Positions 5,329-44,492 are shown, counted from the stretch's first letter. The stretch is 64,000 nt of DNA from an uncultured archaeon (GCA_964342815.1 CAYFHS010000013.1:32001-96000), one strand, 5' to 3'. Made by a program: numbers and translations. Notes: generated by a model from the sequence alone, not told the origin.

Positions 5329-8300
5329 ATGTTCTTTTACTCGGAGTTGTTTCCAATGTCCCCTCCAAGAGCTATGGTGATAAGTCTTTTTCTTATTTTC
5401 ACATTCGTTTGTGGGATATTACCTCCCATGGGCGGGGAGCCTACCCCCCCGCAGAGTGATGGGGGGCGCTCCAGAGGGACTATAGTCGTAAATGCGTCAG
5501 GGGGCGGGGATTACACGCATATACAATGGGCGATTGATAATGCCAGTGACGGGGATACAATTAAGATCCACCCTGGCATCTATTATGAGAATCTTGTTAT
5601 AGATGTCAGTATCCAACTTGTCGGAACTTCAAAATTAAATACGATCATAGATGGTCAAGAACAAGATACATGCATTTTAGTACTGAATGATAGTGTAACA
5701 ATTATGAATGTTAACGTAATTAATAGCGGTAAAAATCGGGAGGATTCAGGCATAATGGTCTCAAAAAATGGGAAATGTATAGTTCGAAATTGTACAATAA
5801 ATAATCACCTTAGGGGAATTTGGTTGGGAGGTTGGAGGGGGGTTCACTTTCCCAAAATTAATAATACGATTGAAAATAATATCATTTCAAACAATAGTTT
5901 TGGCATTCTCTCTGAATACTCCGACTACAATCAAATAAATAACAATTCATGTTTCAATAATGGGATTGGAATATCATTGAATGATTCGAATAGGAATATT
6001 GTTGTAAATAATTCATGCTATCAAAATCGTTGGTATGGGATTTCGGCATTGGCGTCGAGTAATAATAATATTGTCAGAAATTTAGTTTATCAAAATAATA
6101 ACACTGGAATCAGTTCGTACTGGTCAAATAGTAATAGTCTCATTAACAATACTTTATCAAACAATGGTAATGGAATCCGTCTTGGTGGGACGAAGTTTCA
6201 CACTTTATACAATAATAAACTTGAAAATAATGGTATTACTCTCTCAGATAATGATGATCTAAATGAATTGCTTACACATACGATGGATGTTTCAAATTTG
6301 ATAAATGGGAAACCACTTTATTATTGGAAAAATGTAACTGGGGGATCGATTCCCAGCGGAGCAGGCCAAATAATCCTTGTAAACTGTTCGGAAGTGCTTG
6401 TAGAAAATCAAGAAATAAAAAACAGTTCGATAGGTATTTTCCTTGGTTACTCTTCAAGAAATACTATTTCACGTAACAAATGTTCCGATAATTCAAATGG
6501 AATTGAAAATTGTGGAATTCAACTTTGGTATTCAGATTATAACGTTGTTACAGAGAATACATTCAATTCGAATGCAGGTGATTATGCGGGGCATGGGATT
6601 CAATTGTTTTTTTCAAATAAAAACGACATCTCTAAAAACATATGTAATGAAAATGACATCAACGGTATCTCAATTCAATACTCAAATTACAACAACGTGA
6701 CAAACAACACTTGTAACAAAAATGGTTTTGAAGGCATTTATCTTTATAGTTCCATTATTAACACAATCTCTAACAGTACTTTTTTTTCAAATGAGCTATA
6801 TGCCATTTCGATAAATTATTTGTCAGAAGAGAATACAATTTTTTTAAATTCATTTATCGATAATAACAATGGTGGCGATCAAGCCTATGACAATGGTATC
6901 GGTAACAAATGGAACAGCTCGGATAAAGGAAATTATTGGTCTGATTGGAATAAACCGGATACGGATTCCGATGGCATTATTGATACCCCCTATATAATTG
7001 ATAGTAATTTAAACTCGAAAGATTATTACCCGCTTGTAGCACCACCACGGAATATCACGCCTATTGCAGACGCAGGGCATAGTGTAATAATAAACCAGCA
7101 TGAGGATGTGAGATTTAATAGTTCAAATACTATACACAGAAGACTGGTTATCAATTATACGTGGAGTTTTATTTATGACAATATCAATCAATCTCTCTAC
7201 GGACCATCACCATCGTTCACGTTTCACACCGCCGGGACATATGAAGTTCTACTTACGGTAATTGGCTGTTTTAGGCAAAACTCAAATGACACAGTTATCG
7301 TTAAGGTGTTGGACATTACATATCCCATAGCCAACGCTGGAAACGATACCATTATCGAAGTGTTCGGATCAATGCTTTTCAACGCCTCGAACAGTTCGGA
7401 TAATGTAGGGATTAGCGTATACCAGTGGAGATTCAGTTATGACAATGAAGAAAGGATTCTCTTTGGTGAAACAGTCTCCTTCGGTTTCGATAAATGCGGA
7501 GTTTATGTAGTAACACTGAATGTCAGAGATGAAGAGGGGAATTCAGCTTCAGATATCATAAACATAACAGTTATAGACGCAACAGCTCCCATTGCTGATG
7601 CTGGAGAAAATATTTCTATTCGCACAGGTGAAACAATTATTTTTGATGGAACCGATAGTACAGACAATGTAGGGATAATAAATTACACCTGGTCCTTTTA
7701 TTACAATCGAACGGATCAAAACCTTTATGGTTCTAAATCACAATTCAAATTTGAGATAGCTGGAAATTTTTCAGTTACTTTGCATGTAAGAGACGCAATA
7801 GGTCTGTGGGACGTTGATTCCATAGGGATAAATGTGATTGATAACGAGAAACCTAATGCAGATGCCGGAGAAGATGTTAACATAAATTCCAATGGTTCAG
7901 TCCATTTCCAGGGTAATGGAAGCTGGGACAATGAAGGTATTAAAAATTTCACCTGGACCTTTGAATACAATAATAGTATAATCACGTTATACGGCTCAAC
8001 TCCAAATTTCAGATTCGAGATACCTGGGAAATACAATGTAACATTAAGAGTAACAGATATTGAAGGGAATATGGGAACCGATTCATTAATTGTAATCGTC
8101 CACCCAGATAAGGTTATTCCTTCTGATGATGATGATGACGTTAGTCCGACAGATGATGATATTGATCCTACTAATGATGATGTTGATCCGAACGACGGTT
8201 CTGATGCCAGAGAGTCGGGTTCCGGAATTCCCGTATGGGTCTGGATACTCCTGTTCTTTTTTATAGTCGCTATCATTACTGTATTAGTCTTTCTTATCAG

Positions 8301-8388
8301 GAACCCGAATGTGATAGAGAATGAAAAATCTTCAGAAGATTATTTGGGAAGGGTTGAGAAATCCGAAGAATCGGAAATAGAAAAATGA
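5329..8388 (+). CDS. Membrane-anchored surface protein: right-handed beta-helix (NosD/CASH), about 4 PKD domains, acidic linker, C-terminal TM
   Basis: Signal peptide; IVVNASGGGDYTHIQWAIDNA; Asn-rich NNxIxxN repeats; GNYWSDW..PDTDSDGIIDTPY; PIADAG...SxDNVGI..YxW repeats; TM near C-terminus; AT-rich. Confidence 0.87.
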   Translation: MFFYSELFPMSPPRAMVISLFLIFTFVCGILPPMGGEPTPPQSDGGRSRGTIVVNASGGGDYTHIQWAIDNASDGDTIKIHPGIYYENLVIDVSIQLVGTSKLNTIIDGQEQDTCILVLNDSVTIMNVNVINSGKNREDSGIMVSKNGKCIVRNCTINNHLRGIWLGGWRGVHFPKINNTIENNIISNNSFGILSEYSDYNQINNNSCFNNGIGISLNDSNRNIVVNNSCYQNRWYGISALASSNNNIVRNLVYQNNNTGISSYWSNSNSLINNTLSNNGNGIRLGGTKFHTLYNNKLENNGITLSDNDDLNELLTHTMDVSNLINGKPLYYWKNVTGGSIPSGAGQIILVNCSEVLVENQEIKNSSIGIFLGYSSRNTISRNKCSDNSNGIENCGIQLWYSDYNVVTENTFNSNAGDYAGHGIQLFFSNKNDISKNICNENDINGISIQYSNYNNVTNNTCNKNGFEGIYLYSSIINTISNSTFFSNELYAISINYLSEENTIFLNSFIDNNNGGDQAYDNGIGNKWNSSDKGNYWSDWNKPDTDSDGIIDTPYIIDSNLNSKDYYPLVAPPRNITPIADAGHSVIINQHEDVRFNSSNTIHRRLVINYTWSFIYDNINQSLYGPSPSFTFHTAGTYEVLLTVIGCFRQNSNDTVIVKVLDITYPIANAGNDTIIEVFGSMLFNASNSSDNVGISVYQWRFSYDNEERILFGETVSFGFDKCGVYVVTLNVRDEEGNSASDIINITVIDATAPIADAGENISIRTGETIIFDGTDSTDNVGIINYTWSFYYNRTDQNLYGSKSQFKFEIAGNFSVTLHVRDAIGLWDVDSIGINVIDNEKPNADAGEDVNINSNGSVHFQGNGSWDNEGIKNFTWTFEYNNSIITLYGSTPNFRFEIPGKYNVTLRVTDIEGNMGTDSLIVIVHPDKVIPSDDDDDVSPTDDDIDPTNDDVDPNDGSDARESGSGIPVWVWILLFFFIVAIITVLVFLIRNPNVIENEKSSEDYLGRVEKSEESEIEK

Positions 8389-8431
8389 TTTACGGCATCA
8401 TCCCAATCTATGGTCGGCATCTTCCTAAGAT

Positions 8432-8528
8432 GGTCGGTGTGTACCGACCTTGGAGGCAAAGCCTCCTTTATTACATTTTTTTTTATTTTGGGCTCGGGCC
8501 GCCGTTTGCCTGGGGGTCGGCGGCCCTC
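8432..8528 (-). repeat. Three-hairpin intergenic element, copy 2 (reverse orientation), between convergent genes
   Basis: Reverse complement reads GAGGGCCGCCG-N13-CGGCGGCCCG, A-tract, GGAGGC-TTT-GCCTCC, GGTCGG-N6-CCGACC. Confidence 0.82.
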
Positions 8529-8564
8529 TTTAGTTATTTTCAAATTCTAATATATTACAAAAGA

Positions 8565-11500
8565 TCATTCCCATTCCACCTTCTCCAACCCCTCCACCAG
8601 TGCATTGTATATCCTCTCTCTTGCTTTTCCCGTAGATACCACCTCATGGGCCGTACCCACTATCTTCATTCGCTCCGCCGTGTTGTGTTTCCTGAATATT
8701 CGAATCCATTTCTTGACGTATTTGGGATACAATTCCTTTTCCCGTTCATCCAGCTTCTCATCTATATCCCTTACACGGTCCAGCTGGCCGGGATAGCGCT
8801 TCCTCTCATCATAGAGCTTGGCGAGAGCCGGGTCGTTTTTCCTCATATCCTTTCTTATCTCCCTCTCCACCAATGGTACCGATTCCATTCCCGACGGTTC
8901 CAGCACCGAGCCAGTGGCGTGCTCGTCCACGAGAAACTTTATATGATCGGGATTTATCTGGCTGTCCACCACCACCCACGCGCCGCCCCTGATCTCTGCG
9001 TAAGGCGGCATGTACAGTACAACTGGAAGATCATATTTCGACAGCTCGTCAACTATCATGGCTCCGTATTTCAGCACTTCCTCGAACAATTCCAGTTTGC
9101 CTCCCGCAAAACCCCGCCAGTTCGGCATTATGACAAGGGGCCGCCTCTCCCGCCTCATGAATTCGATCCACTGGGCCGTCTTGAAGGCCGAGTCGGGGTA
9201 CCAGACCTGCCCGAACTCCATTTTGTCCTTTGTTGCGGTGTCTGGGTCCGCCGGGTCGGCGGGAACGTGCTTGATCGAGGTTCCCGTTTCCACCGCTATG
9301 AAACCTATGGGCAGACCGCCCATGGTTGCCCGTCCCACGCGGACACCTCCGCCCCATTCAGCCATTTCTTCCTCTGCGCTGCCGCTGTCGAAGAGTATCT
9401 CCGCCAGCCTGAGGCCGTCATAGGATTTTGGCCGCTCCGCATCGGGGGCAGGTGGGCTGATAAGGCCGTTTGGCCCGATGAGAGCCTCCCCGATATCCCT
9501 TTCGATGGTATCATCGCAGCGGATCGACGGAGTTTTCTTTCCAACTACAGGCGGCAAACCCCGGATCCACCTCAGAAGGAGCCTGCATGCATCTCGCTCA
9601 TCCTCAGCTATGCGGTGACTGACACCGTTGGGACCCATAATCTCGGGACCTCCCAGTTCCCGGTTAGACGAAAATATCTTCTCACCGCCGTAAAGAGCAT
9701 TTAGAGCCCTGTAGCCGGTGAGGATTATTTCCGATTGCCTCGTCTGTATGACTCGCTTTAAAAGCCGAACGTTATAGGATATGATACCAGTACAGGTGTC
9801 GGTTATGATAGCCATGGTTGGCACGGAGTGGAATGCCATGGATGAAGCACGGGCCGTTCTTGCCGAGCCCGAAAGGTTCTCCTGGTTCAATTCAGGGGAG
9901 CTTTTTATTATCGAGCTTATTACCCACCGCCGCTGTTCAGTGCCGTTGATGATAACCTTTCTTTCATGGGCCTCGACATTATCGCCGTGTATACGGTAAT
10001 CCGGCTCAGTAAGATACAAATATTCTCCGTCAATATCCGCACGTATCCCCGGGACTCCTCCGATGATACTCGTGACAACATAACTTTCCTCGCCCCCTGT
10101 CTTTCCGCCAATCCGCGGGCGGGCCATTACCAGTGGTTTTAATAGCTTGTAATCAGAAGCGCTAAGGTACAGTTCATCGGATTCGTCATCATAGTTCAGG
10201 CTGTGGCTGACGAGACGATCCAACCCTATTCTAGCCCCGCTGCCCTCTGCAAAATAGACAAATGGAATTCCCTCGGCGGTGGCCAGCTCCGACGCAGCAG
10301 CGTAGGTCATATCTTCACGTATGGCCACGGAACCGCCACGAATGGTCATGTCTCCCGAAACTATTACAATATTCCGTCCTTTCGGAGCTTCAGGTGTTTT
10401 TATGTGGACCTTCCATACTACTATGGAAAGAATACTTCTCTCAGGAGCCCGCTCGATGGGGACGAGATGACACGAACGGTCAAGTATCAGTTCATTTGCA
10501 CTGAAGATATTGTCCGGTTTTGCCATACCGGATTCACCCCATATCTTTTCCAGCTCACCCTCTATGAGGGCAGGCCGGTCATACACGTAGACCTTCCCTC
10601 TGCTTCGGCGCGCCTGCCTCTTTCGATCCAGACGGTCCAGGTCGCGGTATAGCTCGTCAAGTTTCTGCCAAGCTTCTTCCGGAGGTGAGTAGTCAGCATC
10701 TTTCAGGCTGTGCTCAAATTCCTCATTGGGTATGATCGCTCTGGTAGGCTCGGACTCCCCGGGAAATGTGTGTTCCATGATAACATAAGGTTTGAATTGC
10801 AGCATCTGACCTGTGGGATTGTCCACAACTATCAAAATCTCCACGGATTTTTCCGGGCGATACGATGAATAAGCCCAGCCGTGTATCTCAGTACGGGTCA
10901 GGTCCACGTCTGCATAATCTCTTAGATGGTGCTGCATCTTCACAAGGATTCTCCGCGTCTCTGTCCAGGACAATCGTATGGGCCTCACGAACCTGAGGTA
11001 TATCTGATTATTATGTGTCTTAGCCCCCGTAGCCGCATAGGATATGCGGAGATGGCGGAGCGAAGCCCGGAACGCCTCCTTGGCTGCAGGGAACGTGGGT
11101 CCATCCTCCCCCATGACAATGCGGGAATTGCGGATCATGGTCCTAACGTAAATTCGATTCTCTATTTCCGGATAATCCCGACCCCTTGGATTTTGTTTCA
11201 AGTAATGATAAAGGTGTACGTTCATATCGCTGGACGGTAGTTTAGCCATGTAATTCGCAAATGGTTCAAGCTGCCTTATGTTTAGAACATGACCCAGTGA
11301 CGGGTGAAGGTCCCTATAAAGCCGGTCTTCAACATATTCCCCATCCTTGCCAAGGGGTCGGAATGTATAAAGACCGGGATAGTTCTCGTTGCTGTCCCGC
11401 ACCACAAAGGTTATCCTTCGTAGCATTGCGTGCCCCAGAGAGTTATTTATCGTATCTCTGAGAATGGCGGATAACTGGTCGCTGTCGGCAGCATCCGATG

Positions 11501-14500
11501 GTCTCGAGATAAGCAACTCTATTACGTCGTCGAGATGTGGTGAGTCCGGTTCGCTTAACCACATGCTTTCCAGTTTTGAGTATAATCGGAGTAATAGCTC
11601 TTCCATGGTTTCCCCAGGCAGTACCAAGCTCACCAATCCAATCCTGAAATGATTCGACCTCTCATCCCGGAACCTCCAAATATACGTCCTTTTACCTTCT
11701 GGCGATTTCTCATAAACGCAGCTAAGGTCCGGGTGCCGCCTGTAAGCTCTGAGAATTATTAGCTTTCCTGCCAACCTCCTCAATCCGGTCCTGCCGGTGA
11801 GCAGGTATCCGATTAGCCGTCCCATAAATGATTCGGAGGCCTCCATGAGAGCGCCGATGATCCGCTCCTTAGCTTCCTTATCCCCCGACTCTTCCGCTTC
11901 GAGGATCTGCTCCATCATTTCATCAAGGTCCTGAGAGGTTCCCGATTTAAGGGAAAGAAGATAAAGAAGTTCTTCCGCCTTTGCCACTATCTCTCGATAC
12001 TGGTCGTTGTAACCCAAGGATACAACTGCTTTAAGATCGTCGGCAATGCTCCGATAATCCATCACCGACAAACCGTCGAGGAGGCGAGAGAGGACATAAC
12101 GCTTCAAATCGAGCTGGGCGTGGGAGCGAGCTAACGTGTGAAAATCCACTGGATCATTGATAATATCGATGGCCTCGAGCGCAGCGGCAACATTCACACC
12201 GCCGCTGAAATGCCTCTCGTCCCGATAGAAACGTTCGCTCAGTGTAGAAAGAAATGAAATCCATTCACTCTCGTTAACAACCTCTCTGAGTCGGAGCGAC
12301 TCTTCCAAGAGAAGCTCGACAATTGCCGCAGGATATGAATACCCGCTCAGGATGAACTCCAGCGGTTCACGAAGTGAATTAAGAGCTATAGGTGGAGAAA
12401 TGGAACGGAATTGAGCAAGGGTTACTTCCTTGTTTTCGCCTAACAGAGAATACCACAAATCCTCTATTCGTTTATCCGGTACTACCTTTGTTTCCTCCCT
12501 GCATATCTCATTATCCGTCTCCCCTTCGAAGCGGACAAGTATGGCACCGGCTTCCACACTGTCCCCTGTCTTAACAAGGATCTCTGAAACCATTCCTTCG
12601 AGTGGGGTTTCGAGAGATGTGATCATTTTCATCGCTTCGAGGCTCAGAAGAGTGTCGCCTTCCTCCACTCTAGATCCGGCTTCCACAAGAATTTCGGTAA
12701 CTGTCCCACTGAGCGGAGCTCTAAAAGTCGTTGGATCAAGGTCTGTGGTGAATGTTGTTGTACGTCCCCCTATCTCGATATGACTTTCTACCACCTCATC
12801 TGTGCGATATACTCTGAGAATCTCACCGCCGGCCTCGAAGAGATAACTTCCAAACGGGTCATTCTCCCAGAAACGCACAGATGCGGTCATACCGCACAAT
12901 GTAACGTTATACAGATCCACCCCCGCCTCGCGGACGTAGATCTCATAGATATTGCCTCTGTACCGGACTCTCGTAATGGAAGTATTGGCCATTAGCGTAG
13001 GTCGAATCGTCTGACCGGTTTTAATACAAGAAAGAAACTGCATCCTCAGGTCCGCTTTCCTCACGTTCAGGTCAATAAGTGCCATTGCCATAAGTGCAAG
13101 ATCAGGCCTTTCAGTAACACTACCCACGGCGGAATCTCTCTTCTTTATGATTTCCGGGACCCAGCCCGTATGTATATTTTTACCGTCAATGTATTCGGGA
13201 TCTCGCAACAGGTCCATGGCGAAACCCGTGGACGTAAGTATTCCCCTGTATCGGAGTCGATCCAGGAAGGAGATCATGTGCAGTCTTGCTTCCTCCCGGT
13301 TCTTTCCTTTGGATACCACATGGCCGATCTGACTGTCGGCAAAAGAATGAACCATTCCTCCCGGCCCATGACTGAAATAATAGCGAGGAGTATTGGGATC
13401 CGTGGGCGGTATTTCAATATCCTTCACAGTTCCTGACTGAGGGCTGAATCCCGCGTCGGGATTTTCCGCTAATAACCGGACCGATAGGCTGTGCCCGTAG
13501 GAGGTAAAATCCAAGCCGCGGTTCCTCAATTCGGGGGACAGCGGAATTCCCATGGCTACCTTCAACTGTTCGACCACCAGGTCAAGACCCGGAATGAGTG
13601 CTTCCGTTGCGATGTGTTCCACCTGCAGACGTGTATTCATTTCCATGAAATACGGATTTCCTCGGTCGTCCACCAGGAACTCCACCGTTCCAGCACCCTG
13701 GTATCCAACCGAAATAGCGGCGGACACGGATGCTTTACGAATACGTTGGCGGGTTTCTTCTGAAATGGGTATGCCGACCCCTGCTTCCTCGATCAGTTTC
13801 TGATTATGCCGCTGTATGGAGCATTCGCGTTCACCTAGTGCCACCACGTTCCCATGACAGTCCGCCAGTATCTGTTCCTCCACGTGGCGGATTCCTCCGA
13901 TTGCAGCTTTTTCCATAAAGACTACTTCGTTTCCGAAGGCTGCCCTGGATTCCGCACGAGCCGCGTTGAAGCCGCTTTCAAGCTCGCCCCTATTATTAAC
14001 GAAGCGGATACCACGCCCACCCCCGCCAGCGGTGGCTTTTATTGCCACGGGAAACCCGATCCTCCTTGAAATCTCTGCTGCTCTACCGAAGGTATGCACG
14101 CCGAAATTATCGTATGCAATCCGGTACAGGTCCCCCTTCATCTCGAGTATTTTTTCCCCGCCCCTTGTGAATAATAACTTTTCGATTTCATCAATCTTGT
14201 TTATATTATCCTGGATGACGTCGTAGCTCCCGCTCCACCTCAGCATGGGAACCCCTGCAGCCTGCATGATCAATTTTGACATGATCTTGTCGCCCATGGC
14301 TCTCATGGCGTTGACCGGCGGACCGATGAAAACGAGACCTCTATCATGAACTTTCTTGGCGAACTCAACATTCTCGGCAAGATGACCCCAACCAACGGCA
14401 ACTGAGTCGCATCGGTACTCTTGGGCGATTCGAAGCACCTTGTCCTGGTTCTGGTATGTATCCGTAGGACGGGTCCCGTCCAGTCGTGCGATCTCGATAC

Positions 14501-14891
14501 CGAATTGTTTCAGATACCCGGGTCGTCCCACTGCATCTTCGTTGCTATCACCGATCCAATCGGCATCGGAGGCCAGGGCTACGATCTGGATGAGATTTGA
14601 GTTTGTGCCCCCGGATATAATATAGGAAAGTGATTTTATACCCTGGATGAGACGCAGGGCGGACAAGCCGTTATTAACGATAAGAATTCGGCAGAAAGTT
14701 CTTTCCGGCATGCCGCTTTGTTCCTCAATAAAATTTCTAATAACAGAAATACTATTTTTTGTCTTATGAGAAAGTGTATTGGAAGATCCCGTCTTTCCTT
14801 TGATTTTTTTTTCCAGAACTGCGTTCATTTTATCACACGGATGCGGGATGACATCTCGGCATTTACTTGCCGTATTAAAGCTTTGCCTCAC
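8565..14891 (-). CDS. acc: Single-chain, eukaryotic-type acetyl-CoA carboxylase (BC-BT-BCCP-ACC central-CT), 2108 aa
   Basis: BC: ILIVNNG, GWGHLAEN, GDKIMSK, IKATAGGGGRGIR, RECSIQRHNQKLIEEA, EMNTRLQVEH, FADSQIGH. Biotinyl motif EAMKM. Central domain: RAYRR, RRITFV, YPGLYTF, EDRLYRDLHPSL. CT: KTPEAPKGR, SGARIGL, ENLSGS, LGGPEIMGPNGVSH, GQVWYPDSAFKTAQ, NWRGFAGG, AEIRGGAWVVVDSQINPD, VLEPSG. Start could be GTG 14891 or ATG 14828. Confidence 0.95.
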   Translation of the reverse strand: MRQSFNTASKCRDVIPHPCDKMNAVLEKKIKGKTGSSNTLSHKTKNSISVIRNFIEEQSGMPERTFCRILIVNNGLSALRLIQGIKSLSYIISGGTNSNLIQIVALASDADWIGDSNEDAVGRPGYLKQFGIEIARLDGTRPTDTYQNQDKVLRIAQEYRCDSVAVGWGHLAENVEFAKKVHDRGLVFIGPPVNAMRAMGDKIMSKLIMQAAGVPMLRWSGSYDVIQDNINKIDEIEKLLFTRGGEKILEMKGDLYRIAYDNFGVHTFGRAAEISRRIGFPVAIKATAGGGGRGIRFVNNRGELESGFNAARAESRAAFGNEVVFMEKAAIGGIRHVEEQILADCHGNVVALGERECSIQRHNQKLIEEAGVGIPISEETRQRIRKASVSAAISVGYQGAGTVEFLVDDRGNPYFMEMNTRLQVEHIATEALIPGLDLVVEQLKVAMGIPLSPELRNRGLDFTSYGHSLSVRLLAENPDAGFSPQSGTVKDIEIPPTDPNTPRYYFSHGPGGMVHSFADSQIGHVVSKGKNREEARLHMISFLDRLRYRGILTSTGFAMDLLRDPEYIDGKNIHTGWVPEIIKKRDSAVGSVTERPDLALMAMALIDLNVRKADLRMQFLSCIKTGQTIRPTLMANTSITRVRYRGNIYEIYVREAGVDLYNVTLCGMTASVRFWENDPFGSYLFEAGGEILRVYRTDEVVESHIEIGGRTTTFTTDLDPTTFRAPLSGTVTEILVEAGSRVEEGDTLLSLEAMKMITSLETPLEGMVSEILVKTGDSVEAGAILVRFEGETDNEICREETKVVPDKRIEDLWYSLLGENKEVTLAQFRSISPPIALNSLREPLEFILSGYSYPAAIVELLLEESLRLREVVNESEWISFLSTLSERFYRDERHFSGGVNVAAALEAIDIINDPVDFHTLARSHAQLDLKRYVLSRLLDGLSVMDYRSIADDLKAVVSLGYNDQYREIVAKAEELLYLLSLKSGTSQDLDEMMEQILEAEESGDKEAKERIIGALMEASESFMGRLIGYLLTGRTGLRRLAGKLIILRAYRRHPDLSCVYEKSPEGKRTYIWRFRDERSNHFRIGLVSLVLPGETMEELLLRLYSKLESMWLSEPDSPHLDDVIELLISRPSDAADSDQLSAILRDTINNSLGHAMLRRITFVVRDSNENYPGLYTFRPLGKDGEYVEDRLYRDLHPSLGHVLNIRQLEPFANYMAKLPSSDMNVHLYHYLKQNPRGRDYPEIENRIYVRTMIRNSRIVMGEDGPTFPAAKEAFRASLRHLRISYAATGAKTHNNQIYLRFVRPIRLSWTETRRILVKMQHHLRDYADVDLTRTEIHGWAYSSYRPEKSVEILIVVDNPTGQMLQFKPYVIMEHTFPGESEPTRAIIPNEEFEHSLKDADYSPPEEAWQKLDELYRDLDRLDRKRQARRSRGKVYVYDRPALIEGELEKIWGESGMAKPDNIFSANELILDRSCHLVPIERAPERSILSIVVWKVHIKTPEAPKGRNIVIVSGDMTIRGGSVAIREDMTYAAASELATAEGIPFVYFAEGSGARIGLDRLVSHSLNYDDESDELYLSASDYKLLKPLVMARPRIGGKTGGEESYVVTSIIGGVPGIRADIDGEYLYLTEPDYRIHGDNVEAHERKVIINGTEQRRWVISSIIKSSPELNQENLSGSARTARASSMAFHSVPTMAIITDTCTGIISYNVRLLKRVIQTRQSEIILTGYRALNALYGGEKIFSSNRELGGPEIMGPNGVSHRIAEDERDACRLLLRWIRGLPPVVGKKTPSIRCDDTIERDIGEALIGPNGLISPPAPDAERPKSYDGLRLAEILFDSGSAEEEMAEWGGGVRVGRATMGGLPIGFIAVETGTSIKHVPADPADPDTATKDKMEFGQVWYPDSAFKTAQWIEFMRRERRPLVIMPNWRGFAGGKLELFEEVLKYGAMIVDELSKYDLPVVLYMPPYAEIRGGAWVVVDSQINPDHIKFLVDEHATGSVLEPSGMESVPLVEREIRKDMRKNDPALAKLYDERKRYPGQLDRVRDIDEKLDEREKELYPKYVKKWIRIFRKHNTAERMKIVGTAHEVVSTGKARERIYNALVEGLEKVEWE

Positions 14892-15016
14892 TATTAACCA
14901 AGCTGTTCAGTAAAATGAGTAATTTCAACCATTAAATGAAACCGATAAAAAAAGATAATAGGAAGGTCCGTATCACGTGGTACAGTAGTCGTTAACAATA
15001 ACTAGAAGGTGTACTG

Positions 15017-16249
15017 ATGGATCTGAATGATGTATTTCAAAGGATAGACGATTATTCGCAACAGATGTATGACACGTTGATGGACGTGTGCAAAATAAAG
15101 GCTCTGGCTCCCGAGAATGAGGGTGACGGAGAACTCGATAAAGCCGAATTCCTGATCAAAGTGCTCAAGGATTCCGGGATCGAAGACGCTAGGATAATTA
15201 AAGCACCGGACGCAAGGGTGACCTGTGGATTCAGACCAAACGTCATCGCAGTTCTCGAAGGCAGCAGGCCGGAGCTGGGTACCATATGGTCCGTTGCTCA
15301 TATCGATGTGGTGCCGCCGGGGGACCTGGGGCTCTGGAACACGGAGCCATATGAGCCGGTGGAAACAGACGAAAAGATAATCGGAAGAGGGGTGGAGGAC
15401 AACACCCAGTCATTGATCGCCTCGCTATTTGCCGCCCGTGCGGTCAGGGATTCCGGGATAGGTCATGAATACAATATCGGGCTCGCCTTTGTGGCAGACG
15501 AGGAAGTCGGCTCAAAGTACGGCATCAAATATCTGGTGGAGAACACCGAGCTATTCGACCGGGAGAAGGACCTCATCGTGGTCCCCGATTCGGGAAATCC
15601 GGAAAGCGATTTCGTGGAGGTTTCCGAGAAGAGCATCATGTGGTTAAAGGTCACCACCACGGGAAAACAATGTCACGCATCAAGCCCCGAGCGGGGCAAT
15701 AACGCTTACCGTGCCGCAATGAAATTCTTGCTGAAGGCTGACGAGTATCTACACGAAAGATACGGACTTTCCGATCCGCTATTCGATCCTCCGATCTCCA
15801 CCTTCGAGCCAACGAAGAAGCTGGCTAACGTCGGAAACGTGAACACAATACCCGGTGAGGATGTTTCCTATTTCGATATGAGGATCCTTCCCGATTACGA
15901 TCCCGATGCGATCCTTGCGGACATGGAGGAGATCGCCCGTGAGATTGAACAGGAGACCGGAGTAACGATAAATTTCGAAAAGGAGAATTACGACCGGGCG
16001 GCACCGCCGACGCCTCCGGATGCCCCGGTGGTGAAAAAGCTCATGAAGGCGATAAAGAGGGTATATGACAATCAGCCGAAACCGGGGGGGATCGGCGGAG
16101 GCACTTGCGCAGCCATCTTCAGAAGGGCGGGGTACAATGCCGTGGTCTGGAGCACCATTGACGAACAGGCTCACGCGCCCAACGAGTACATCTACAAGAA
16201 GAATCTTATCAATGACAGTAAGGTATTCGCTACGCTTTTTACCGAATGA
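15017..16249 (+). CDS. M20 family metallopeptidase (DapE/ArgE-like)
   Basis: AHIDVVPPG, GRGVEDN, ADEEVGS, EKSIMW...GKQCHAS, NVNTIPG, GGGTCA, QAHAPNEY metal-ligand pattern. Confidence 0.9.
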   Translation: MDLNDVFQRIDDYSQQMYDTLMDVCKIKALAPENEGDGELDKAEFLIKVLKDSGIEDARIIKAPDARVTCGFRPNVIAVLEGSRPELGTIWSVAHIDVVPPGDLGLWNTEPYEPVETDEKIIGRGVEDNTQSLIASLFAARAVRDSGIGHEYNIGLAFVADEEVGSKYGIKYLVENTELFDREKDLIVVPDSGNPESDFVEVSEKSIMWLKVTTTGKQCHASSPERGNNAYRAAMKFLLKADEYLHERYGLSDPLFDPPISTFEPTKKLANVGNVNTIPGEDVSYFDMRILPDYDPDAILADMEEIAREIEQETGVTINFEKENYDRAAPPTPPDAPVVKKLMKAIKRVYDNQPKPGGIGGGTCAAIFRRAGYNAVVWSTIDEQAHAPNEYIYKKNLINDSKVFATLFTE

Positions 16250-23535: not shown

Positions 23536-23657
23536 TGGACCCGTCGGGATTTGAACCCGAGGCCTCCTCCACTTCGGCCAACTGGTTGGCCTATGTCCTC
23601 GGTCTGGCCAACCTTCGGATGCCAAGGAGACGATCTTCCGGACTGATCTACGGGCCC
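23536..23657 (-). tRNA. tRNA-Ala(GGC) with a 48-nt intron at canonical position 37/38; CCA not encoded
   Basis: Acceptor GGGCCCG/CGGGTCC with G3:U70 and A73; D-stem GATC/GATC; anticodon stem TCTCC/GGAGG with loop TTGGCA^T; T-arm TCGGG-TTCAAAT-CCCGA. Confidence 0.93.
23572..23619 (-). other. tRNA intron with bulge-helix-bulge motif
   Basis: Central helix U32-U33-G34-G35 pairs with intron CCGA; 3-nt bulges CA^U and AG^U; inner stem GGTTGGCC/GGCCAACC. Confidence 0.88.
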
Positions 23658-38164: not shown

Positions 38165-41100
38165 TTACAAGGGCTTCTTGGCCACTCGTCGTCGAACCGC
38201 TGTTTTCTTCGCTACCGGGGCAGCTGGGGGCGTTTCTACGGCAGGTGTTTCCGACATTACGTAATCCTGGCAGGGTTCGCACCAGTAACAATCGTATTCT
38301 GAGAAGTATTCCGACGATTTACCACATTTGGGACATGCCGGAGCGCCGCTCGTCTCAGGGATAATGCTCTCGGTCACAACGGGTGGAACATCAGCCTCGG
38401 CCTTTGTTTCATCAGGGGAACCGTACAGGCTCTTGTATACGTCCTCTTCGGGGGATACACGACCCAGGTCCTCTCCTTCATCAGCTTCCTTGCCTCTTAG
38501 GACTAGAGCCAATACCAACCCGCCGATCCCCAAGATCAGGACTATGGCAACGATAATAACTACTATCCACGGAAATTCATTCTTGGATGCCGGTTCATCT
38601 CCACCGGTACCGCCAGTGGGTTCGGTATCATCATCATCCTCTTTCTCTACCTGATTCGGATTGTCCTTTTTGTTCGGATCATATCCCCCGTCGTACTCTT
38701 CAAGGTTTGTAAGATCGTCCCCGTCCGGATCTTCATCGGCGTCCGATTTCGAATTTGGGTCCAGGTCATGTTTCAGCTCCCATCCGTCCGGCATACCGTC
38801 GCGGTCCGAATCCGCCATGGATGGATCGAGGTCTTTCTTAAATTCCTCAAGATTGCTAACGTTATCATCATCCTTATCTTCACTGGCATCGGCGGAGTCT
38901 ACGGGATCGAAACCGTAATCCACTTCCCACCCGTCCGGCATCCCGTCAGAATCGCTGTCCAGCTTCTTGGGGTCGGTTCCAAGTGAATACTCCATCTCGT
39001 TCGAAAGCCCATCGGTGTCATTGTCCATCTTTGCATCATAGGCATATTGTGGATCGAGGCTGTTATTCACCTCCCATCCATCCGGCAGACCGTCTCCGTC
39101 CATGTCGGCATTTGTGGGATCCATATCCCGATTAAACTCCTCCATGTTGGATAAGCCATCCTGATCCTTGTCTCCGGTAGAGTCGAGAGGATCGAGGGGA
39201 TCAAGGTCGTAATTCACCTCCCAGCCGTCCGTCAGGGAGTCACCGTCAGTATCGCTGTCACGTGGATCGGTTCCCGACTCGTATTCCCTGAGATTGTTTA
39301 GCTCGTCCACGTCGGGATCGTCTTCTTCATCTGTGAAGTCCATGGGCGCCAGATTATGTTCCACCTCCCAACCATCCGGCATCCCGTCATGGTCGCTGTC
39401 GGCGGTATCCGGAAACGTTCCCTCCATGAACTCCTGAAGATTGGTCAGGCCGTCGCCGTCACCGTCCAGTCCAGGATCGGTATCTGACAGCGGATCCAAA
39501 CCCATCTCGATCTCCCATCCGTCATCCATGCCGTCGTTATCGGTATCCGCGTTCTTCGGGAGAGTTTGGTGCTGGTATTCTTCGAAGTTCTTCAGACCGT
39601 CATCATCGGGGTCCAGTGAACGGTCGCTGTCCGAATCCATATCCAAATCATGCTCGTCTTCCCACCAGTCAGGCATTCCGTCATCATCCGTATCCTCGTA
39701 AATACCATTGGAAAGTTCAAAGGCCAGTGGCGACATGGCCAAACTCTCCTGCCCCTTGGTATCACGGGCGGTTATCCTTACTTTGTAGGAATCATCATCA
39801 ACCATCCGGGTGGTATCCCATAAGTAGGTACCCGTGTTATCGTGGTTGGAATAAATGATGGAAAAGTCTGCATCATTCCTCGTATATTCGAGCTTGATGG
39901 TAAGATCAGCGTTGTCATCCTTGTCATCGGTGGCGGTCCAGGTGATGGTTTGGTTTCCGTCCCATACCTCCCCACCCACCGGTGAAAGCAAACTGACCAT
40001 GGGTGCAAAATCGTTCTTGATCTCGAAAGTGGGCCCCATGGTTGCCATACTCTCCTTTCCGGCAGAATCCCTGGCCAGTACCTTCAAACGATAATTGCTT
40101 CCATCATCAACGGTTGTAGTGTCCCAGACATAGGATCCTGAATTGGGAATATCCGATACTATGCTTGTCCAGCTGCCGCTTCCCTTTCGGTAATCGATGG
40201 AAATTTCGATGCTATCAGCATCAGGATCGCTAGCAGACCAGTTGATCTGAAGGTTTCCTGTTACAACCTCGGTGCCCACGGGATAATCAATGCTGACCAA
40301 TGGGGCTGCATTGCCGAGATTGATCTGTTGGGATTTTATCACTTTCCTCGCGTGATAGCGATATATTGCCTGACTGATATTTCCTCCCTGCCACGGGTCA
40401 TTATTCTTATCTACCCTGATATCCTCCACTATGACGAAATTAACTTTATAGAGCTCATCCGGTGGGATGGATTTGACCTCAATTGTCGCGTTGATCCAGC
40501 TGTTCGCACCCGCTTTCTTTCCAAACGTTTTAATACCAACGGGACTAGGATTTCCAGATCTGCCGTTTATGTAGCCCTTGTAGGTCGTATCGATGGACGT
40601 TTGATTGGGATTTGTACTACCGCCAATATGACCCACGACACCATCGAAAGTAGTGAATGGGATCGCCCCTCCCCAGTTGTAGAAGTTGAATCTTGCGGTT
40701 GCATCGGCATTGCCAAATCCGTGGGCGCTGCTGGCGGCGTGCCATTCTATCAGAGTATAATGGTCCGGAAAGTAATCGGGATCGCTGACCAATCGGTCAT
40801 GCGCACCGACGGAACCGGGGCAGTAGCCGCACCACGTTGCCGTGAAACACTCGCCCAGAACTCTTTTCTGGGCACCCGTGTCCTTGGTAGAAGTGTCCAG
40901 GAAATCAATGGTAGATTGGATCGCTTCATATGAGTCATACTGTCTCCCGGGGTCATTGTTCATGTTCTTCCTTACCTTGCTTATGCTTTGAACAAAAACA
41001 ACGACACTGACATCGTCGGCATTCCAGGCGGGATCTATGTTGAATGTCTCGTTGAAATAGAATTTCGATCCCACATTTGCCCGCGTGTCCGTGTTCGCAT

Positions 41101-41182
41101 CTTCACTGGCGCTGCTTATGCCAAATGAAGAAAATAATACAACCGTCGATATTATTATCGCCAATATTATCGTGTTTTTCAT
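38165..41182 (-). CDS. Surface protein: circularly permuted Omp28/thioredoxin-like CxxC domain, 2 Ig-like domains, Ca-binding DxDxDG repeats, TM, Zn ribbon
   Basis: Signal peptide; ECFTATWCGYCP; many DSDxDGMPDGWE repeats; TM; CPKC...CYWCEPC; basic tail. Confidence 0.85.
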   Translation of the reverse strand: MKNTIILAIIISTVVLFSSFGISSASEDANTDTRANVGSKFYFNETFNIDPAWNADDVSVVVFVQSISKVRKNMNNDPGRQYDSYEAIQSTIDFLDTSTKDTGAQKRVLGECFTATWCGYCPGSVGAHDRLVSDPDYFPDHYTLIEWHAASSAHGFGNADATARFNFYNWGGAIPFTTFDGVVGHIGGSTNPNQTSIDTTYKGYINGRSGNPSPVGIKTFGKKAGANSWINATIEVKSIPPDELYKVNFVIVEDIRVDKNNDPWQGGNISQAIYRYHARKVIKSQQINLGNAAPLVSIDYPVGTEVVTGNLQINWSASDPDADSIEISIDYRKGSGSWTSIVSDIPNSGSYVWDTTTVDDGSNYRLKVLARDSAGKESMATMGPTFEIKNDFAPMVSLLSPVGGEVWDGNQTITWTATDDKDDNADLTIKLEYTRNDADFSIIYSNHDNTGTYLWDTTRMVDDDSYKVRITARDTKGQESLAMSPLAFELSNGIYEDTDDDGMPDWWEDEHDLDMDSDSDRSLDPDDDGLKNFEEYQHQTLPKNADTDNDGMDDGWEIEMGLDPLSDTDPGLDGDGDGLTNLQEFMEGTFPDTADSDHDGMPDGWEVEHNLAPMDFTDEEDDPDVDELNNLREYESGTDPRDSDTDGDSLTDGWEVNYDLDPLDPLDSTGDKDQDGLSNMEEFNRDMDPTNADMDGDGLPDGWEVNNSLDPQYAYDAKMDNDTDGLSNEMEYSLGTDPKKLDSDSDGMPDGWEVDYGFDPVDSADASEDKDDDNVSNLEEFKKDLDPSMADSDRDGMPDGWELKHDLDPNSKSDADEDPDGDDLTNLEEYDGGYDPNKKDNPNQVEKEDDDDTEPTGGTGGDEPASKNEFPWIVVIIVAIVLILGIGGLVLALVLRGKEADEGEDLGRVSPEEDVYKSLYGSPDETKAEADVPPVVTESIIPETSGAPACPKCGKSSEYFSEYDCYWCEPCQDYVMSETPAVETPPAAPVAKKTAVRRRVAKKPL

Positions 41183-41531
41183 GGTTTCGCCACCGTTTTT
41201 CTTTCAGTATTATTGTTAGATACACAAAGATAAAGGGTCATAATTTCTTTGACCGAATATATATAGATGCACTAATATATTTTTTCATATATTAAATTAG
41301 CTTAATCATAATTTGGGCTAGCGCAAGAATATATTACTATCATTTACAACACATTTAAGACCGATGCCTGATAGAAGAATCCTCGGCCCAGAAACTATGA
41401 ACACCGTTTCCCAAACTCCCAATGAAGGCGCCACGTTCACTGTTATTTGGAAACTTATTTTTTGGCAATCCAATGGCCGGGAAAGTGCTCTCTTTCCATC
41501 AACATGGGTTGGTTCATCTCTCGTTATTCAC

Positions 41532-44492
41532 CTATCTTACCGCTCTCTTAACCACTTTGCGCCGAACGGCAGTAGCAGTTTTCACCGGAGGTAGCAATTC
41601 AAGGGTTTGGTCGTAAACATAATCCTGGCAGGGCCCACACCAATAACAATCATACTCTTGATAGTATTCCGAGGATTTGCCGCATTTGGGGCAAGCAGGT
41701 TTTCTCGGTACACTGCCGTAAATATCGTCCGAGATAACTTCTTCCGATCGCGAAGGTTCCGGTGAAGAACCATACAGATTTGCGTATTCGTCCTGCTGCT
41801 TTTGTTCAGGTGATATGCGGCCCATGTCGTCCCCTTCATCAGAATCTTTCCCCCTGAAAACGATCACTAATACCAGTCCCCCCACCCCCAGAATGAGAAT
41901 TACGACAACTATTATCACCACAACCCATGGGAATCCACTCCCGGAAGCTGGATTTTGGCCTTGTCCGCCGTTGTCCGGGACCGCACCATCATCAACATCA
42001 TCATCATCGTCAGTGGGTTTGTTGGGATTGTCAGCCTCATTAGGATCGAATCCAGCGTCGAATTCCGCGAGATTGGTCATTCCGTCTCCGTCGGCATCGT
42101 CGTCGGCATCGAATTTGGATTTCGGATCCAATCCCATCTGTATTTCCCAGCCGTCAGGCATCCCGTCGCCATCCGTATCTTTCAATGTTGGGTTGGTGTC
42201 TTTTATAAATTCCTCAAGGTTGGTGAGATTGTCCCCATCCGTATCCTCTTCAGCATCAGAGGCTTTAGTGGGATCGAGTGCGTATTTCACCTCCCACCAG
42301 TCCTCTATCTGATCCCCATCCGTATCTTTGTTGAATGGGTCGGTGTTGACCAGATATTCATCATGGTTCGTCAGCTTGTCCGAATCATTATCCATGCTGC
42401 CGTCATAGTAGTTATTGGGGTCCAGATTATATTCGACCTCCCAACCATCGGGGATACCGTCCTTGTCGATATCGGGGTCCGTGGGATCGGTTCCCTCATC
42501 ATATTCTTCCCTGTTGGTGAGACCGTCATCATCTCCATCAACGGTTCCATCCACCTCATCCGTGGGATCGAGCCCGAACTCCACTTCCCAACCATCGGGG
42601 AGACCATCACCATCCGTATCACTGTCGTGCGGGTCCGTATCAACCGTGTATTCTTCCAGGTTGCTGAGTCCGTCCACATCGGGATCAAGCTCTTCGTCCT
42701 CGAAATCCATCGGTAATAGATTATTAGCCACTTCCCAACCATCCGGCATCCCATCGTGATCGCTGTCAGGAGTATCGGAATACGTTCCATGAAGGAACTC
42801 GTCGATGTTCGTAAGATTGTCCCCGTCCGGGTCGAGAGTCGAATCCTGGCCATCCAGGGGAGCAAGGCCCATCTCAACTTCCCAACCATCATCCATACCA
42901 TCCCCGTCACTGTCTGCATTTTTAGGGTCCGTACTGTGCTGATATTCCTCGAAGTTTTTCAAACCATCGTCATCGGGATCCATGTTCCGATCGTTCTCCG
43001 ATGTCTCATCCAGATTATGTTCGTCCTCCCACCAATCGGGCATGCCATCCTCATCCGTGTCCTCGTAAATCCCATTAGCAAGTTCGAAGGTCTTTGGAGA
43101 GGTTACTGTGCTCTCCTGCCCCATGGAATCCCGAGCGGTTATCCTTACTTTATAGGAATCATCGTCAACCATCCGAGTGGTATCCCATGTGAAACCACCT
43201 GTGTTATCGAGATTGGAATAAATGATTGAATAATCTAGTTCATCCCTTGTATATTCGAGTTTTATGGTCAGATCAGCATCGTCATCCAGCTCATCTGTGG
43301 CGGTCCAGGTAATGGTCTGATTCCCGCTCCAGACCTCGTCCCCCAAAGGACTGGTCAAGACGACAACCGGAGGTAGATCGTTATCTATCTCGAAGGAGTC
43401 GGTCATGGTGAATGTCCCCTTCTTGCCCCCATCATCTTCCACTGTGGCTCTCAGAGTATATCCCACCGCATCCACCACCGCAGTGGTATCCCACACATAG
43501 CTGCCTGTGTTCTCGAGATTTGAGGCAATGGGCGTCCATCCGCCGCTGCGGCCATACTCAAGTGAGACAGTAAGAATGTTATCAACATCAACATCCGAAG
43601 CGCTCCACTGTATCGGAAGATCCCCGGCCACCACCTCGCCTCCGGTAGGATTATCTATTGTGATGACGGGAGCGGCGTTCAAACCAAAGAAATGGACCTT
43701 GGATTGCAGCACCTCCTTTGTGGTATCGGATTGTACGAAAACCACGGCGGTCATTTCCTCTTCTTTCCAGCTCCCTCCAATGTTGAAGTTCTTCGATATA
43801 TCGGCGGTATCCCCCTGATTTGAAAGGGAGACCGACACTCCGTTTGCGTTATCCACCATATCCCGGACCGTGAATCGATGATTTGTTTCCCCGTTCGGAG
43901 CATTATATGAGATATTGCTCTCAAGTATCAATATCCTGGCCCTGAGGTTCGAAGCGGATATGGTGTCCAGGGCTTCAATATGAACGTCTATGGATCCCGT
44001 CCCGGTTCCCAGCGATCCGGTAACGTCGATCTTCAATTTACTGGGAATAGCCAACCTGGCGTCCACCTCGGTTTTCAGATCCGTATAATAACTTGTTTGA
44101 AAATTGACCTTCTCACCATCGCAATATACACAGGGAACCGAATTAACCCCGTAATAACTTCTCCTGGCATCGTTCTCGGCTGAATTCGCCGTGTAGAAAG
44201 GATCATTTCCCGCTGGCCAGCTTACGTGATAGCGAACGAGGGAAACCTTTTCTTCCCCATACTCATCCGCTATTCTATCGAAACTGGGATTCGCACCTGC
44301 GCAGGGACCGCATCCCGTATTCGTAAAATCTTCCAGAAGAACAACGCGCTGGGTATTTCCCCTCTCACTTCTCGTATCCGGTTGTTCAGCTGAACCTCCC
44401 TCATCAATGGCTGAAATCGAACCAAATGACGAGAGAAGCATTATTAATCCCAAAATCATTATCAAATAGCGCTTTGGCATCATTTCTATCAC
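41532..44492 (-). CDS. Tandem paralog: Omp28/thioredoxin-like CxxC domain, 2 Ig-like domains, DxDxDG repeats, TM, Zn ribbon
   Basis: VVLLEDFTNTGCGPC, YHVSWPAGNDPF, YYGVNSVP, HRFTVRDM, AVVFVQS...EVLQS; architecture shared with 38165..41182. Confidence 0.87.
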   Translation of the reverse strand: MIEMMPKRYLIMILGLIMLLSSFGSISAIDEGGSAEQPDTRSERGNTQRVVLLEDFTNTGCGPCAGANPSFDRIADEYGEEKVSLVRYHVSWPAGNDPFYTANSAENDARRSYYGVNSVPCVYCDGEKVNFQTSYYTDLKTEVDARLAIPSKLKIDVTGSLGTGTGSIDVHIEALDTISASNLRARILILESNISYNAPNGETNHRFTVRDMVDNANGVSVSLSNQGDTADISKNFNIGGSWKEEEMTAVVFVQSDTTKEVLQSKVHFFGLNAAPVITIDNPTGGEVVAGDLPIQWSASDVDVDNILTVSLEYGRSGGWTPIASNLENTGSYVWDTTAVVDAVGYTLRATVEDDGGKKGTFTMTDSFEIDNDLPPVVVLTSPLGDEVWSGNQTITWTATDELDDDADLTIKLEYTRDELDYSIIYSNLDNTGGFTWDTTRMVDDDSYKVRITARDSMGQESTVTSPKTFELANGIYEDTDEDGMPDWWEDEHNLDETSENDRNMDPDDDGLKNFEEYQHSTDPKNADSDGDGMDDGWEVEMGLAPLDGQDSTLDPDGDNLTNIDEFLHGTYSDTPDSDHDGMPDGWEVANNLLPMDFEDEELDPDVDGLSNLEEYTVDTDPHDSDTDGDGLPDGWEVEFGLDPTDEVDGTVDGDDDGLTNREEYDEGTDPTDPDIDKDGIPDGWEVEYNLDPNNYYDGSMDNDSDKLTNHDEYLVNTDPFNKDTDGDQIEDWWEVKYALDPTKASDAEEDTDGDNLTNLEEFIKDTNPTLKDTDGDGMPDGWEIQMGLDPKSKFDADDDADGDGMTNLAEFDAGFDPNEADNPNKPTDDDDDVDDGAVPDNGGQGQNPASGSGFPWVVVIIVVVILILGVGGLVLVIVFRGKDSDEGDDMGRISPEQKQQDEYANLYGSSPEPSRSEEVISDDIYGSVPRKPACPKCGKSSEYYQEYDCYWCGPCQDYVYDQTLELLPPVKTATAVRRKVVKRAVR

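Follow-up and report, generated by a model that had tools for sequence, protein, structure and literature searches.

How did a complete acetyl-CoA carboxylase (ACC) of the eukaryotic kind come to be encoded by an archaeal genome, and what does it do there? The gene in question occupies positions 8565..14891 on the minus strand of a 64,000-nucleotide stretch of DNA (hereafter, the window), which corresponds to C13:32001-96000 (GCA_964342815.1, CAYFHS010000013.1) of a 4.35-Mb metagenome-assembled genome (MAG) consisting of 116 contigs, with 88.9% completeness and 3.2% contamination. Judging from sequence comparisons, the gene probably encodes a functional, biotin-dependent single-chain ACC of the eukaryotic type, which is resident in one archaeal class, most likely feeds a megasynthase and branches near the stem of eukaryotic ACCs. 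The combination of a single chain with a central domain is already known from ACCs of eukaryotes and bacteria, and the interest of the archaeal one is evolutionary. In the part of the literature that we covered, there was no description of a eukaryote-type ACC in archaea.

The open reading frame (ORF) starts with GTG, has no internal stop, ends with the stop codon at 8565-8567 and specifies 2108 amino acids. The real start is likely the ATG at 14828-14826, which would give a protein of 2087 amino acids, because the N-terminus of an 86%-identical orthologue (P0003, MNAV...) aligns there. Pfam profiles delineate five domains. The biotin carboxylase (BC) domain spans residues 67-578 (13158..14693) and comprises Biotin_carb_N (PF00289, 67-196), CPSase_L_D2 (PF02786, 265-452) and Biotin_carb_C (PF02785, 471-578). 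It is followed by the BT domain (ACCA_BT, PF21385, residues 598-714, 12750..13100), which scores 24.3 bits, below the 27-bit cut-off, and lies inside a match to the human ACC1 structure covering residues 65-800. Next come the biotin carboxyl carrier protein (BCCP) domain (Biotin_lipoyl, PF00364, 59 bits, residues 722-787, 12531..12728), the ACC central domain (ACC_central, PF08326, matched in two stretches with 108.5 bits and E 3.9e-31, residues 796-1494, 10410..12506) and the carboxyltransferase (CT) domain with both lobes (Carboxyl_trans, PF01039, 267 bits, covering 2-485 of 493, residues 1501-2093, 8613..10391). All five are encoded on the minus strand, and the order BC-BT-BCCP-central-CT on one polypeptide is that of eukaryotes, as in the enzyme of animals, fungi and plants. 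The ORF listing and the Pfam order thus agree with the first-pass annotation, which had read the gene from the sequence as an uninterrupted 2108-residue ACC of eukaryotic architecture; the three profiles that it named as a check (PF08326, PF01039 and PF02786) all match. By sequence, human ACC1 (E 5e-225) is the best match among solved structures, followed by yeast ACC (E 1.7e-209), and the CT domain alone matches yeast and human CT structures with E values of 1e-108 to 1e-124.

The central domain has 19-20% identity to that of eukaryotes. Residues 796-1494 match the central domain of human ACC1 in a phmmer comparison (E 8.6e-12). An AlphaFold model of the domain (pLDDT 84.8, pTM 0.82) consists of a helical N-terminal part followed by alpha/beta subdomains. 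When this model was used in a Foldseek search, the only matches in the PDB were ACC central domains from yeast and human, the best being yeast 5csk (E 1.5e-28, TMq 0.64-0.68 over ~730 columns); the alignment of 37 relatives given to AlphaFold included eukaryotic ACCs, which qualifies this structural match. When 1.84 billion representatives were searched exhaustively with the central and CT half of the protein, the matches behind the archaeal cluster scored 297-434 bits. The 20 labelled matches that were looked up are all eukaryotic except one and come from across the eukaryotic tree, including Cyanophora, Ancoracysta, Cymbomonas, Caenorhabditis, Mangifera, Cryptosporidium, Pythium, Galdieria, Naegleria, Andalucia and Rhizamoeba.

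The sites of catalysis are conserved. The ATP-grasp glycine loop GGGGRGIR and the catalytic EMNTRLQVEH of the BC domain are intact, the biotinyl-lysine is K755 in EAMKM (nucleotides 12627-12629), and the host genome has a gene for a biotin protein ligase. Conserved motifs and known ACC chemistry suggest that this ligase would biotinylate K755, that the BC domain would carboxylate biotin with ATP and bicarbonate, and that BCCP would then swing to the CT active site, the central domain acting as a scaffold. There the carboxyl group would be passed to acetyl-CoA, possibly to propionyl-CoA too, giving malonyl-CoA.

All motifs quoted in the first-pass annotation are present in the translation, and its description of them as eukaryotic throughout holds for one part of the protein only. 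In the CT domain, GQVWYPDSAFKTAQ, NWRGFAGG and EIRGGAWVVVD are indeed the eukaryotic versions. By contrast, BC and BCCP carry the bacterial-type EMNTRLQVEH, GGGGRGIR and EAMKM, versus ELNPRLQVEH, GGGGKGIR and EVMKM in all sampled eukaryotes, and the archaeal GWGHLAEN differs from the eukaryotic GWGHASEN. Overall, the archaeal protein retains 68-80% of the eukaryote-invariant columns across BC, BCCP and CT (78% in CT). Eukaryotes deviate from the state shared by single-chain bacterial ACCs and classical AccC in 11 BC columns, of which the archaea have the eukaryotic state in four, the ancestral state in five and another residue in two.

The host is archaeal by genome-level evidence: the genome has the archaeal ribosomal protein L31e, whereas the bacterial L28 was not found. 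Among its close relatives, which bear the label Thermoplasmatota, ETNP2_MAG_1 is the genome of the same genus. The class is probably EX4484-6 of GTDB, alias 'Ca. Penumbrarchaeia'; the paper that uses the latter name (PMC12220078) mentions no carboxylase or polyketide synthase. ACC_central was found in 15 of the 401 sampled Thermoplasmatota genomes, and all 15 fall inside this one class (37 species genomes), namely in family f1 (4/4) and family f3 (11/24). The orthologues are 50-93% identical to the window ACC over the full length. In the archaeal gene tree, an f1 clade (99) is separated from an f3 clade (100), and the branching mostly tracks genera. Agreement of the gene tree with the taxonomic families fits vertical descent with losses. 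One relative, G065, has two copies of the gene (a partial one on G065:C92 and another on G065:C132; L052 and L053). The C92 copy is almost identical to that of G142, a genome of another genus (g7), suggesting a mis-binned contig rather than a duplication.

Codon usage of the gene is typical of its genome, with G+C at third codon positions of 0.552 compared to a median of 0.517 (long ORFs, 5-95% range 0.383-0.616). The M20 peptidase gene next to ACC is also its neighbour in L004 (ETNP2_MAG_1) and L003. Furthermore, the stretch is present in marine and seawater metagenomes from several studies, where independent contigs span both ends of the gene with 100% identity (8404-8720 and 14735-15075), leaving no sign of the chimeric join for which the two junctions were to be checked. 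A spike in read depth at 13501-13781, with loose ends, was considered as a possible joint and rejected, as it is a conserved BC motif region recruited from other organisms. Hence, the ACC is a long-standing resident of one Thermoplasmatota class, as had been surmised, and contamination and chimeric joining can, in effect, be dismissed.

Malonyl-CoA made by the enzyme would most likely be consumed by an iterative type I megasynthase of the PfaA type, with a type II fatty acid synthase (FAS)-like cluster as a possible second consumer. The megasynthase gene of the host (contig C41; L038:6693-16301, minus strand) encodes 3202 amino acids with two acyl carrier protein (ACP) domains, KS, AT, four further ACP domains, KR and DH, in this order, and passes the NCBI PfaA model TIGR02813 (1212 bits versus a cut-off of 1010). 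No PfaB, PfaC or PfaD genes were seen beside it. The ACP-dependent FAS-like cluster (contig C33; L039:7041-13398) consists of a FabZ-like gene, an ORF without a family match, and genes for KAS, a FabG-type SDR, nitroreductase, ACP, a second SDR and a radical SAM enzyme bearing a zinc ribbon of the HMPTM type. Within the class, PfaA-like genes are present in 28 of the 37 genomes (f1 4/4, f3 23/24, f9 1/1), including all 15 that have ACC. In two genera, the PfaA-like gene immediately precedes ACC in the same orientation, with gaps of 88 bp in G059 and 119 bp in G053. Of all the evidence for a supply of malonyl-CoA from ACC to the megasynthase, this arrangement is the strongest. At both of these loci, an adenylate kinase gene follows ACC, and the PfaA-like protein of G059 (L046:819-10745, G059:C17) has a fused C-terminal 4'-phosphopantetheinyl transferase domain.

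Two deep non-archaeal lineages share the complete architecture. The first, P0141, is encoded at L021:6909-17289 (contig CAZXZM010000007.1) of a 1.6-Mb MAG (GCA_964645365.1). This MAG is bacterial, with L28 present, L31e absent and a bacterial-looking SHMT; a 16S search in G401 found none, and the domain was assigned from ribosomal proteins L28 and L31e. Downstream of the P0141 ACC gene are genes for ACPS, a thiolase and an acyltransferase that resembles GPAT and contains GPAT_C. The second, P0128, comes from a 28-kb Logan contig (SRR22388166), on which ACC, AcpS and FAS I are arranged in operon-like fashion (L022:250-17434). The FAS I is of the fungal type and exceeds 4000 amino acids, with Fas1 helical, meander, MaoC, AT and Fas-alpha ACP domains. 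The contig looks bacterial because Shine-Dalgarno sites precede both genes (AAGGAG at a distance of 8 nt from the FAS start, and GGAG ahead of ACC). Close relatives of P0128 are confined to two other Logan contigs. Loci of Micavibrio, Vampirovibrionales and similar bacteria, which were considered as ACC relatives, turned out to encode ordinary AccC subunits and served as outgroup only.

Two insertions in the BC domain are informative. A ~20-residue insertion (IPDIRRLYG...) is present in all sampled eukaryotes as well as in P0128 and its relative P0135, and is absent from the archaea, the bacterial single-chain family and AccC. Conversely, an insertion after PWSGS is common to archaea, eukaryotes and P0128/P0135, and absent from the bacterial family, AccC and P0141. 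In the window ACC (PxxRWSGS), the latter insertion is ~50 residues long and lies between the N-terminal and ATP-grasp parts, whereas the eukaryotic one at that site is shorter. The archaeal BC domain also has an insertion of its own, of 8-10 residues (WIGDSNEDAV).

The BC and full-length trees place the archaeal protein consistently with these signatures. Full-length trees were built under LG+C20 PMSF with a quick search and SH-aLRT support; the BC tree was obtained with a careful search and rooted with classical AccC, and the CT tree was given a PccB-type outgroup. Named members of the bacterial family are from Terriglobales, Sulfotelmatobacter, Acidoferrum and Myxococcota, the actinobacterial protein SACE_4237 not being included. 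The full-length tree resolves into the bacterial family, the archaea with P0141, and P0128 and P0135 with the eukaryotes. Eukaryotes are supported at 95, and their union with P0128/P0135 at 100 on a branch of 0.67. After removal of long branches, the topology was unchanged, with supports of 99, 100 and 100 in the quick version. In the BC tree, the single-chain family is recovered (100/99), and its bacterial members (98/90) are sister to a 100/100 group of all others. The latter contains the archaea (100/100), P0141 and the eukaryotes with P0128/P0135 (100/100), the eukaryotes alone being supported at 99/96. The archaeal ACC is therefore outside all sampled eukaryotes in both the BC (99/96) and full-length (95-99 SH-aLRT) trees. 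P0141 joins the archaeal clade in the full-length tree as well as in the CT tree (99-100), on a very long branch, and the P0128 group, which shares the eukaryotic BC insertion, is sister to all sampled eukaryotic ACCs. Thus, several prokaryotic lineages lie close to the stem of the eukaryotes; archaea are one of them and not the nearest, which disposes of the view that they are uniquely the closest prokaryotic relatives of eukaryotic ACC.

Several observations weigh against the reading outlined at the outset. The class name depends on a single isolate label (EX4484-6, carried by one f3 genome). On the functional side, the window's genome has ACC on one contig and the PfaA-like gene on another, and 13 PfaA-positive genomes of the class are without ACC, so that the megasynthase is not strictly dependent on it. 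In addition, a classical operon in the same genome (C1:182747-186361), encoding PccB (515 aa), AccC (519 aa) and BCCP (176 aa), could supply malonyl-CoA. On the phylogenetic side, the CT tree alone does not resolve eukaryote monophyly and puts the archaea with P0141 (100/100) together with long-branch eukaryotes in a basal position, with weak support (61/36). Moreover, the archaeal clade sits on a long stem of about 0.7-1.1 substitutions per site, and fast evolution after a transfer could have shifted it outward artificially.

The separate location of ACC and the PfaA-like gene and the 13 genomes without ACC would also suit an enzyme that acts mainly on another acyl-CoA, such as propionyl-CoA to give methylmalonyl-CoA, or that serves a pathway other than the megasynthase or FAS. 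The multidomain ACC of Saccharopolyspora erythraea, SACE_4237, carboxylates acetyl- and propionyl-CoA equally well (Livieri 2019, PMC6491548). The ACC-positive relative G403 (= G071) has no PccB-type CT at all, and the single-chain ACC there may cover several duties. Nevertheless, we consider such a main role improbable: the CT motifs match those of eukaryotic ACCs, which are acetyl-CoA users, ACC adjoins the PfaA-like gene in two genera, and ACPS is linked to ACC in the two nearest non-archaeal loci, followed by FAS I in L022.

Transfer from a crown eukaryote, such as a marine protist or alga, with accelerated divergence mimicking a basal position, would explain the eukaryotic CT motifs, the place of the archaea among basal long-branch eukaryotes in the CT tree and the long archaeal stem, and the seawater habitat is shared with eukaryotes. 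The two domains can be compared by the approximately unbiased (AU) test. With BC data, a grouping of the archaea with long-branch eukaryotes is rejected (p-AU 1e-12); with CT data, a clade of eukaryotes and P0128/P0135 with the archaea outside is not rejected (p-AU 0.27). In the CT tree, the branch to the bacterial-family domains measures about 4 substitutions per site, and the PccB-type outgroup domains are separated from the archaeal and eukaryotic ones by branches of about 5.3 and 2.6 substitutions per site. The supported exclusion of the archaea from the eukaryotes and from their union with P0128/P0135 in the BC tree also speaks against a crown-eukaryote donor, as do the absence of the eukaryotic BC insertion, the retention of ancestral EMNTR, GGGGRG and EAMKM, and the grouping of the bacterial P0141 with the archaea. 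Such a donor appears quite unlikely.

A plain bacterial ACC of the SACE_4237 type could instead have moved into archaea, with no special relation to eukaryotes. SACE_4237 is a characterised, essential and homodimeric multidomain ACC with a central region, which makes malonyl-CoA for fatty-acid synthesis; the CT domains of such actinobacterial enzymes cluster with eukaryotic CTs, and an actinobacterial origin of eukaryotic ACC was proposed (Livieri 2019, PMC6491548). A search with a Kofleriaceae homologue revealed a large family of ~1860-residue proteins with ACC_central, presumably of the SACE_4237 type and common in Acidobacteriota and Myxococcota; the 1804-residue Kofleriaceae protein itself gave no ACC_central match in a Pfam scan, though it is a member of this family. 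Together with SACE_4237, this family makes outdated the premise of the first-pass annotation that known bacterial single-chain carboxylases (Deinococcus YCC, mycobacterial LCC) carry bacterial-type CT domains. PfaA-type and type II FAS-like genes, which accompany ACC in the archaeal host, are typical of bacteria. However, the sampled members of the bacterial family form a clade of their own, apart from the archaea (98/90 in the BC tree, 100 in the full-length tree), and its CT has NLSGFDGSPES and RYHGGAYVVFS in place of the motifs shared by archaea and eukaryotes. Identity of the window protein to this family is 35-38% in BC, 22-25% in CT and 14-18% in the central domain, versus 36-38% in BC and 37-38% in CT to eukaryotes. 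Furthermore, none of the best 150 representatives in the search with the central and CT half, of which ~20 are named, was identified as a family member. Grouping of the CT and central domains with bacterial fused carboxylases, the outcome that would have undone the eukaryotic affinity, was therefore not observed for the sampled family. The archaea are far closer to eukaryotes in CT and central domains than the bacterial family is, which argues that they are one of the few prokaryotic lineages on or near the eukaryotic ACC stem. Accordingly, simple acquisition of a SACE_4237-type enzyme appears quite unlikely as well.

Finally, a eukaryotic contaminant gene brought in by misassembly or mis-binning, to which the fragmentation and estimated contamination of the MAG and the G+C content of the gene (0.509, the 96th percentile of 2-kb windows) might point, is hardly credible for a gene that has no introns, lies ~40 kb inside a 116.7-kb contig, is only ~33% identical overall to its nearest eukaryotic counterpart, and has the typical codon usage, conserved upstream neighbour and bridging contigs at both ends described above; its orthologues, which come from 15 species genomes of many studies, are moreover structured by archaeal family.

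With a resident, eukaryote-type ACC near the eukaryotic stem as the preferred reading, the direction of transfer can be considered. The first-pass annotation had proposed either an old transfer from eukaryotes or a prokaryotic lineage sister or ancestral to eukaryotic ACC; the position outside the sampled crown eukaryotes fits either, and we make no choice between them. Candidate directions are from bacteria to archaea, from a prokaryote to stem eukaryotes, and from a stem eukaryote to prokaryotes. Tentatively, and with considerable reserve, one may suppose that a complete enzyme with a eukaryote-type CT predates the last eukaryotic common ancestor and that the archaea, P0141 and P0128 are surviving relatives of that stem. 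If so, eukaryotes would have obtained their cytosolic ACC ready-made, perhaps together with a fatty-acid megasynthase, and archaea making acyl lipids from malonyl-CoA would represent a partial breach of the lipid divide. The P0128 contig, with its ACC-AcpS-FAS I arrangement, could likewise be relevant to where eukaryotic ACC and fungal-type FAS came from. In an earlier phylogenetic study, eukaryotic ACC was left aside as an isolated long branch (Lombard & Moreira 2011). Prokaryotic proteins with eukaryote-type CT and central domains and ancestral BC states break this branch, making the origin of eukaryotic ACC, by which carbon becomes committed to fatty-acid synthesis, phylogenetically testable. 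The co-occurrence of ACC with a PfaA-type megasynthase and a type II FAS-like cluster in one class suggests that these archaea possibly make fatty-acyl or polyenoic products, and archaeal lipid genes of this kind bear on the lipid divide and on the bacterial-type membranes of eukaryotes.

The remainder of the window provides context. Divergently from ACC, on the plus strand, lies the M20/M28 peptidase gene (15017..16249, Pfam). This peptidase and the other neighbours (NosD/PKD surface proteins, ABC transporters and TruD) provided no functional link to ACC, and the neighbouring genes in the window include no clear archaeal markers. Downstream of ACC, the convergent intergenic region 8389..8564 is probably a terminator or repeat element. 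The three-hairpin element of the host that had been described at the 3' end is recovered in that several hairpins fold there (z -3.7); only the G+C-rich one, with the stem GGGCCGCCG...CGGCGGCCC, recurs in the genome, as six partial copies of 76-90% identity. Rfam identifies a tRNA at 23536-23657 (minus strand), whereas ARAGORN reported none in the window; since its span is 122 nt for a 71-position model, the tRNA probably has an intron, in archaeal fashion. Very large ORFs of about 990-2080 amino acids are found at 5329-8388, 38165-44492, 48033-54281 and 58689-63941. Those that were scanned (all except the 2082- and 1750-residue ones) have NosD/beta-helix and PKD domains or match repeat proteins, and are probably surface proteins. 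The G+C content of the window swings from 0.35 to 0.51.

Among known systems, eukaryotic ACCs (yeast Acc1, 5csl; human ACC1, 6g2i and 8xkz) are the closest in design: they too are single chains of similar size with the order BC-BT-BCCP-central-CT, and the archaeal enzyme shares with them the central fold (~730 columns), the CT motifs and the site of the PWSGS insertion. It differs in being devoid of the ~20-residue BC insertion, in its bacterial-type BC and BCCP residues, in BC insertions of its own, and in the adjacency of its gene to a PfaA-type megasynthase in sister genera. SACE_4237 and the ~1860-residue bacterial family are likewise prokaryotic single chains with the same domain order. 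Proteins of the latter family are about 250 residues shorter than the archaeal ACC and have a highly divergent CT on a very long branch, and the archaeal ACC is not nested among those sampled. The long-chain acyl-CoA carboxylase/YCC type has no central domain, another domain order and a PccB-like CT, whereas the window ACC has a central domain and a C-terminal CT. The archaeal multi-subunit AccC/BCCP/PccB enzymes perform the same chemistry with three subunits and no BT or central domain. The archaeal ACC, P0141 and the Logan-contig proteins P0128, P0135 and P0421 all have the full eukaryote-type architecture, ACC_central included; in comparison with the archaeal protein, P0141 is without the PWSGS insertion and on a very long branch, and the P0128 group possesses the eukaryote-specific one. 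The placement of ACPS next to ACC in the P0141 and P0128 loci parallels that of the archaeal ACC beside a megasynthase.

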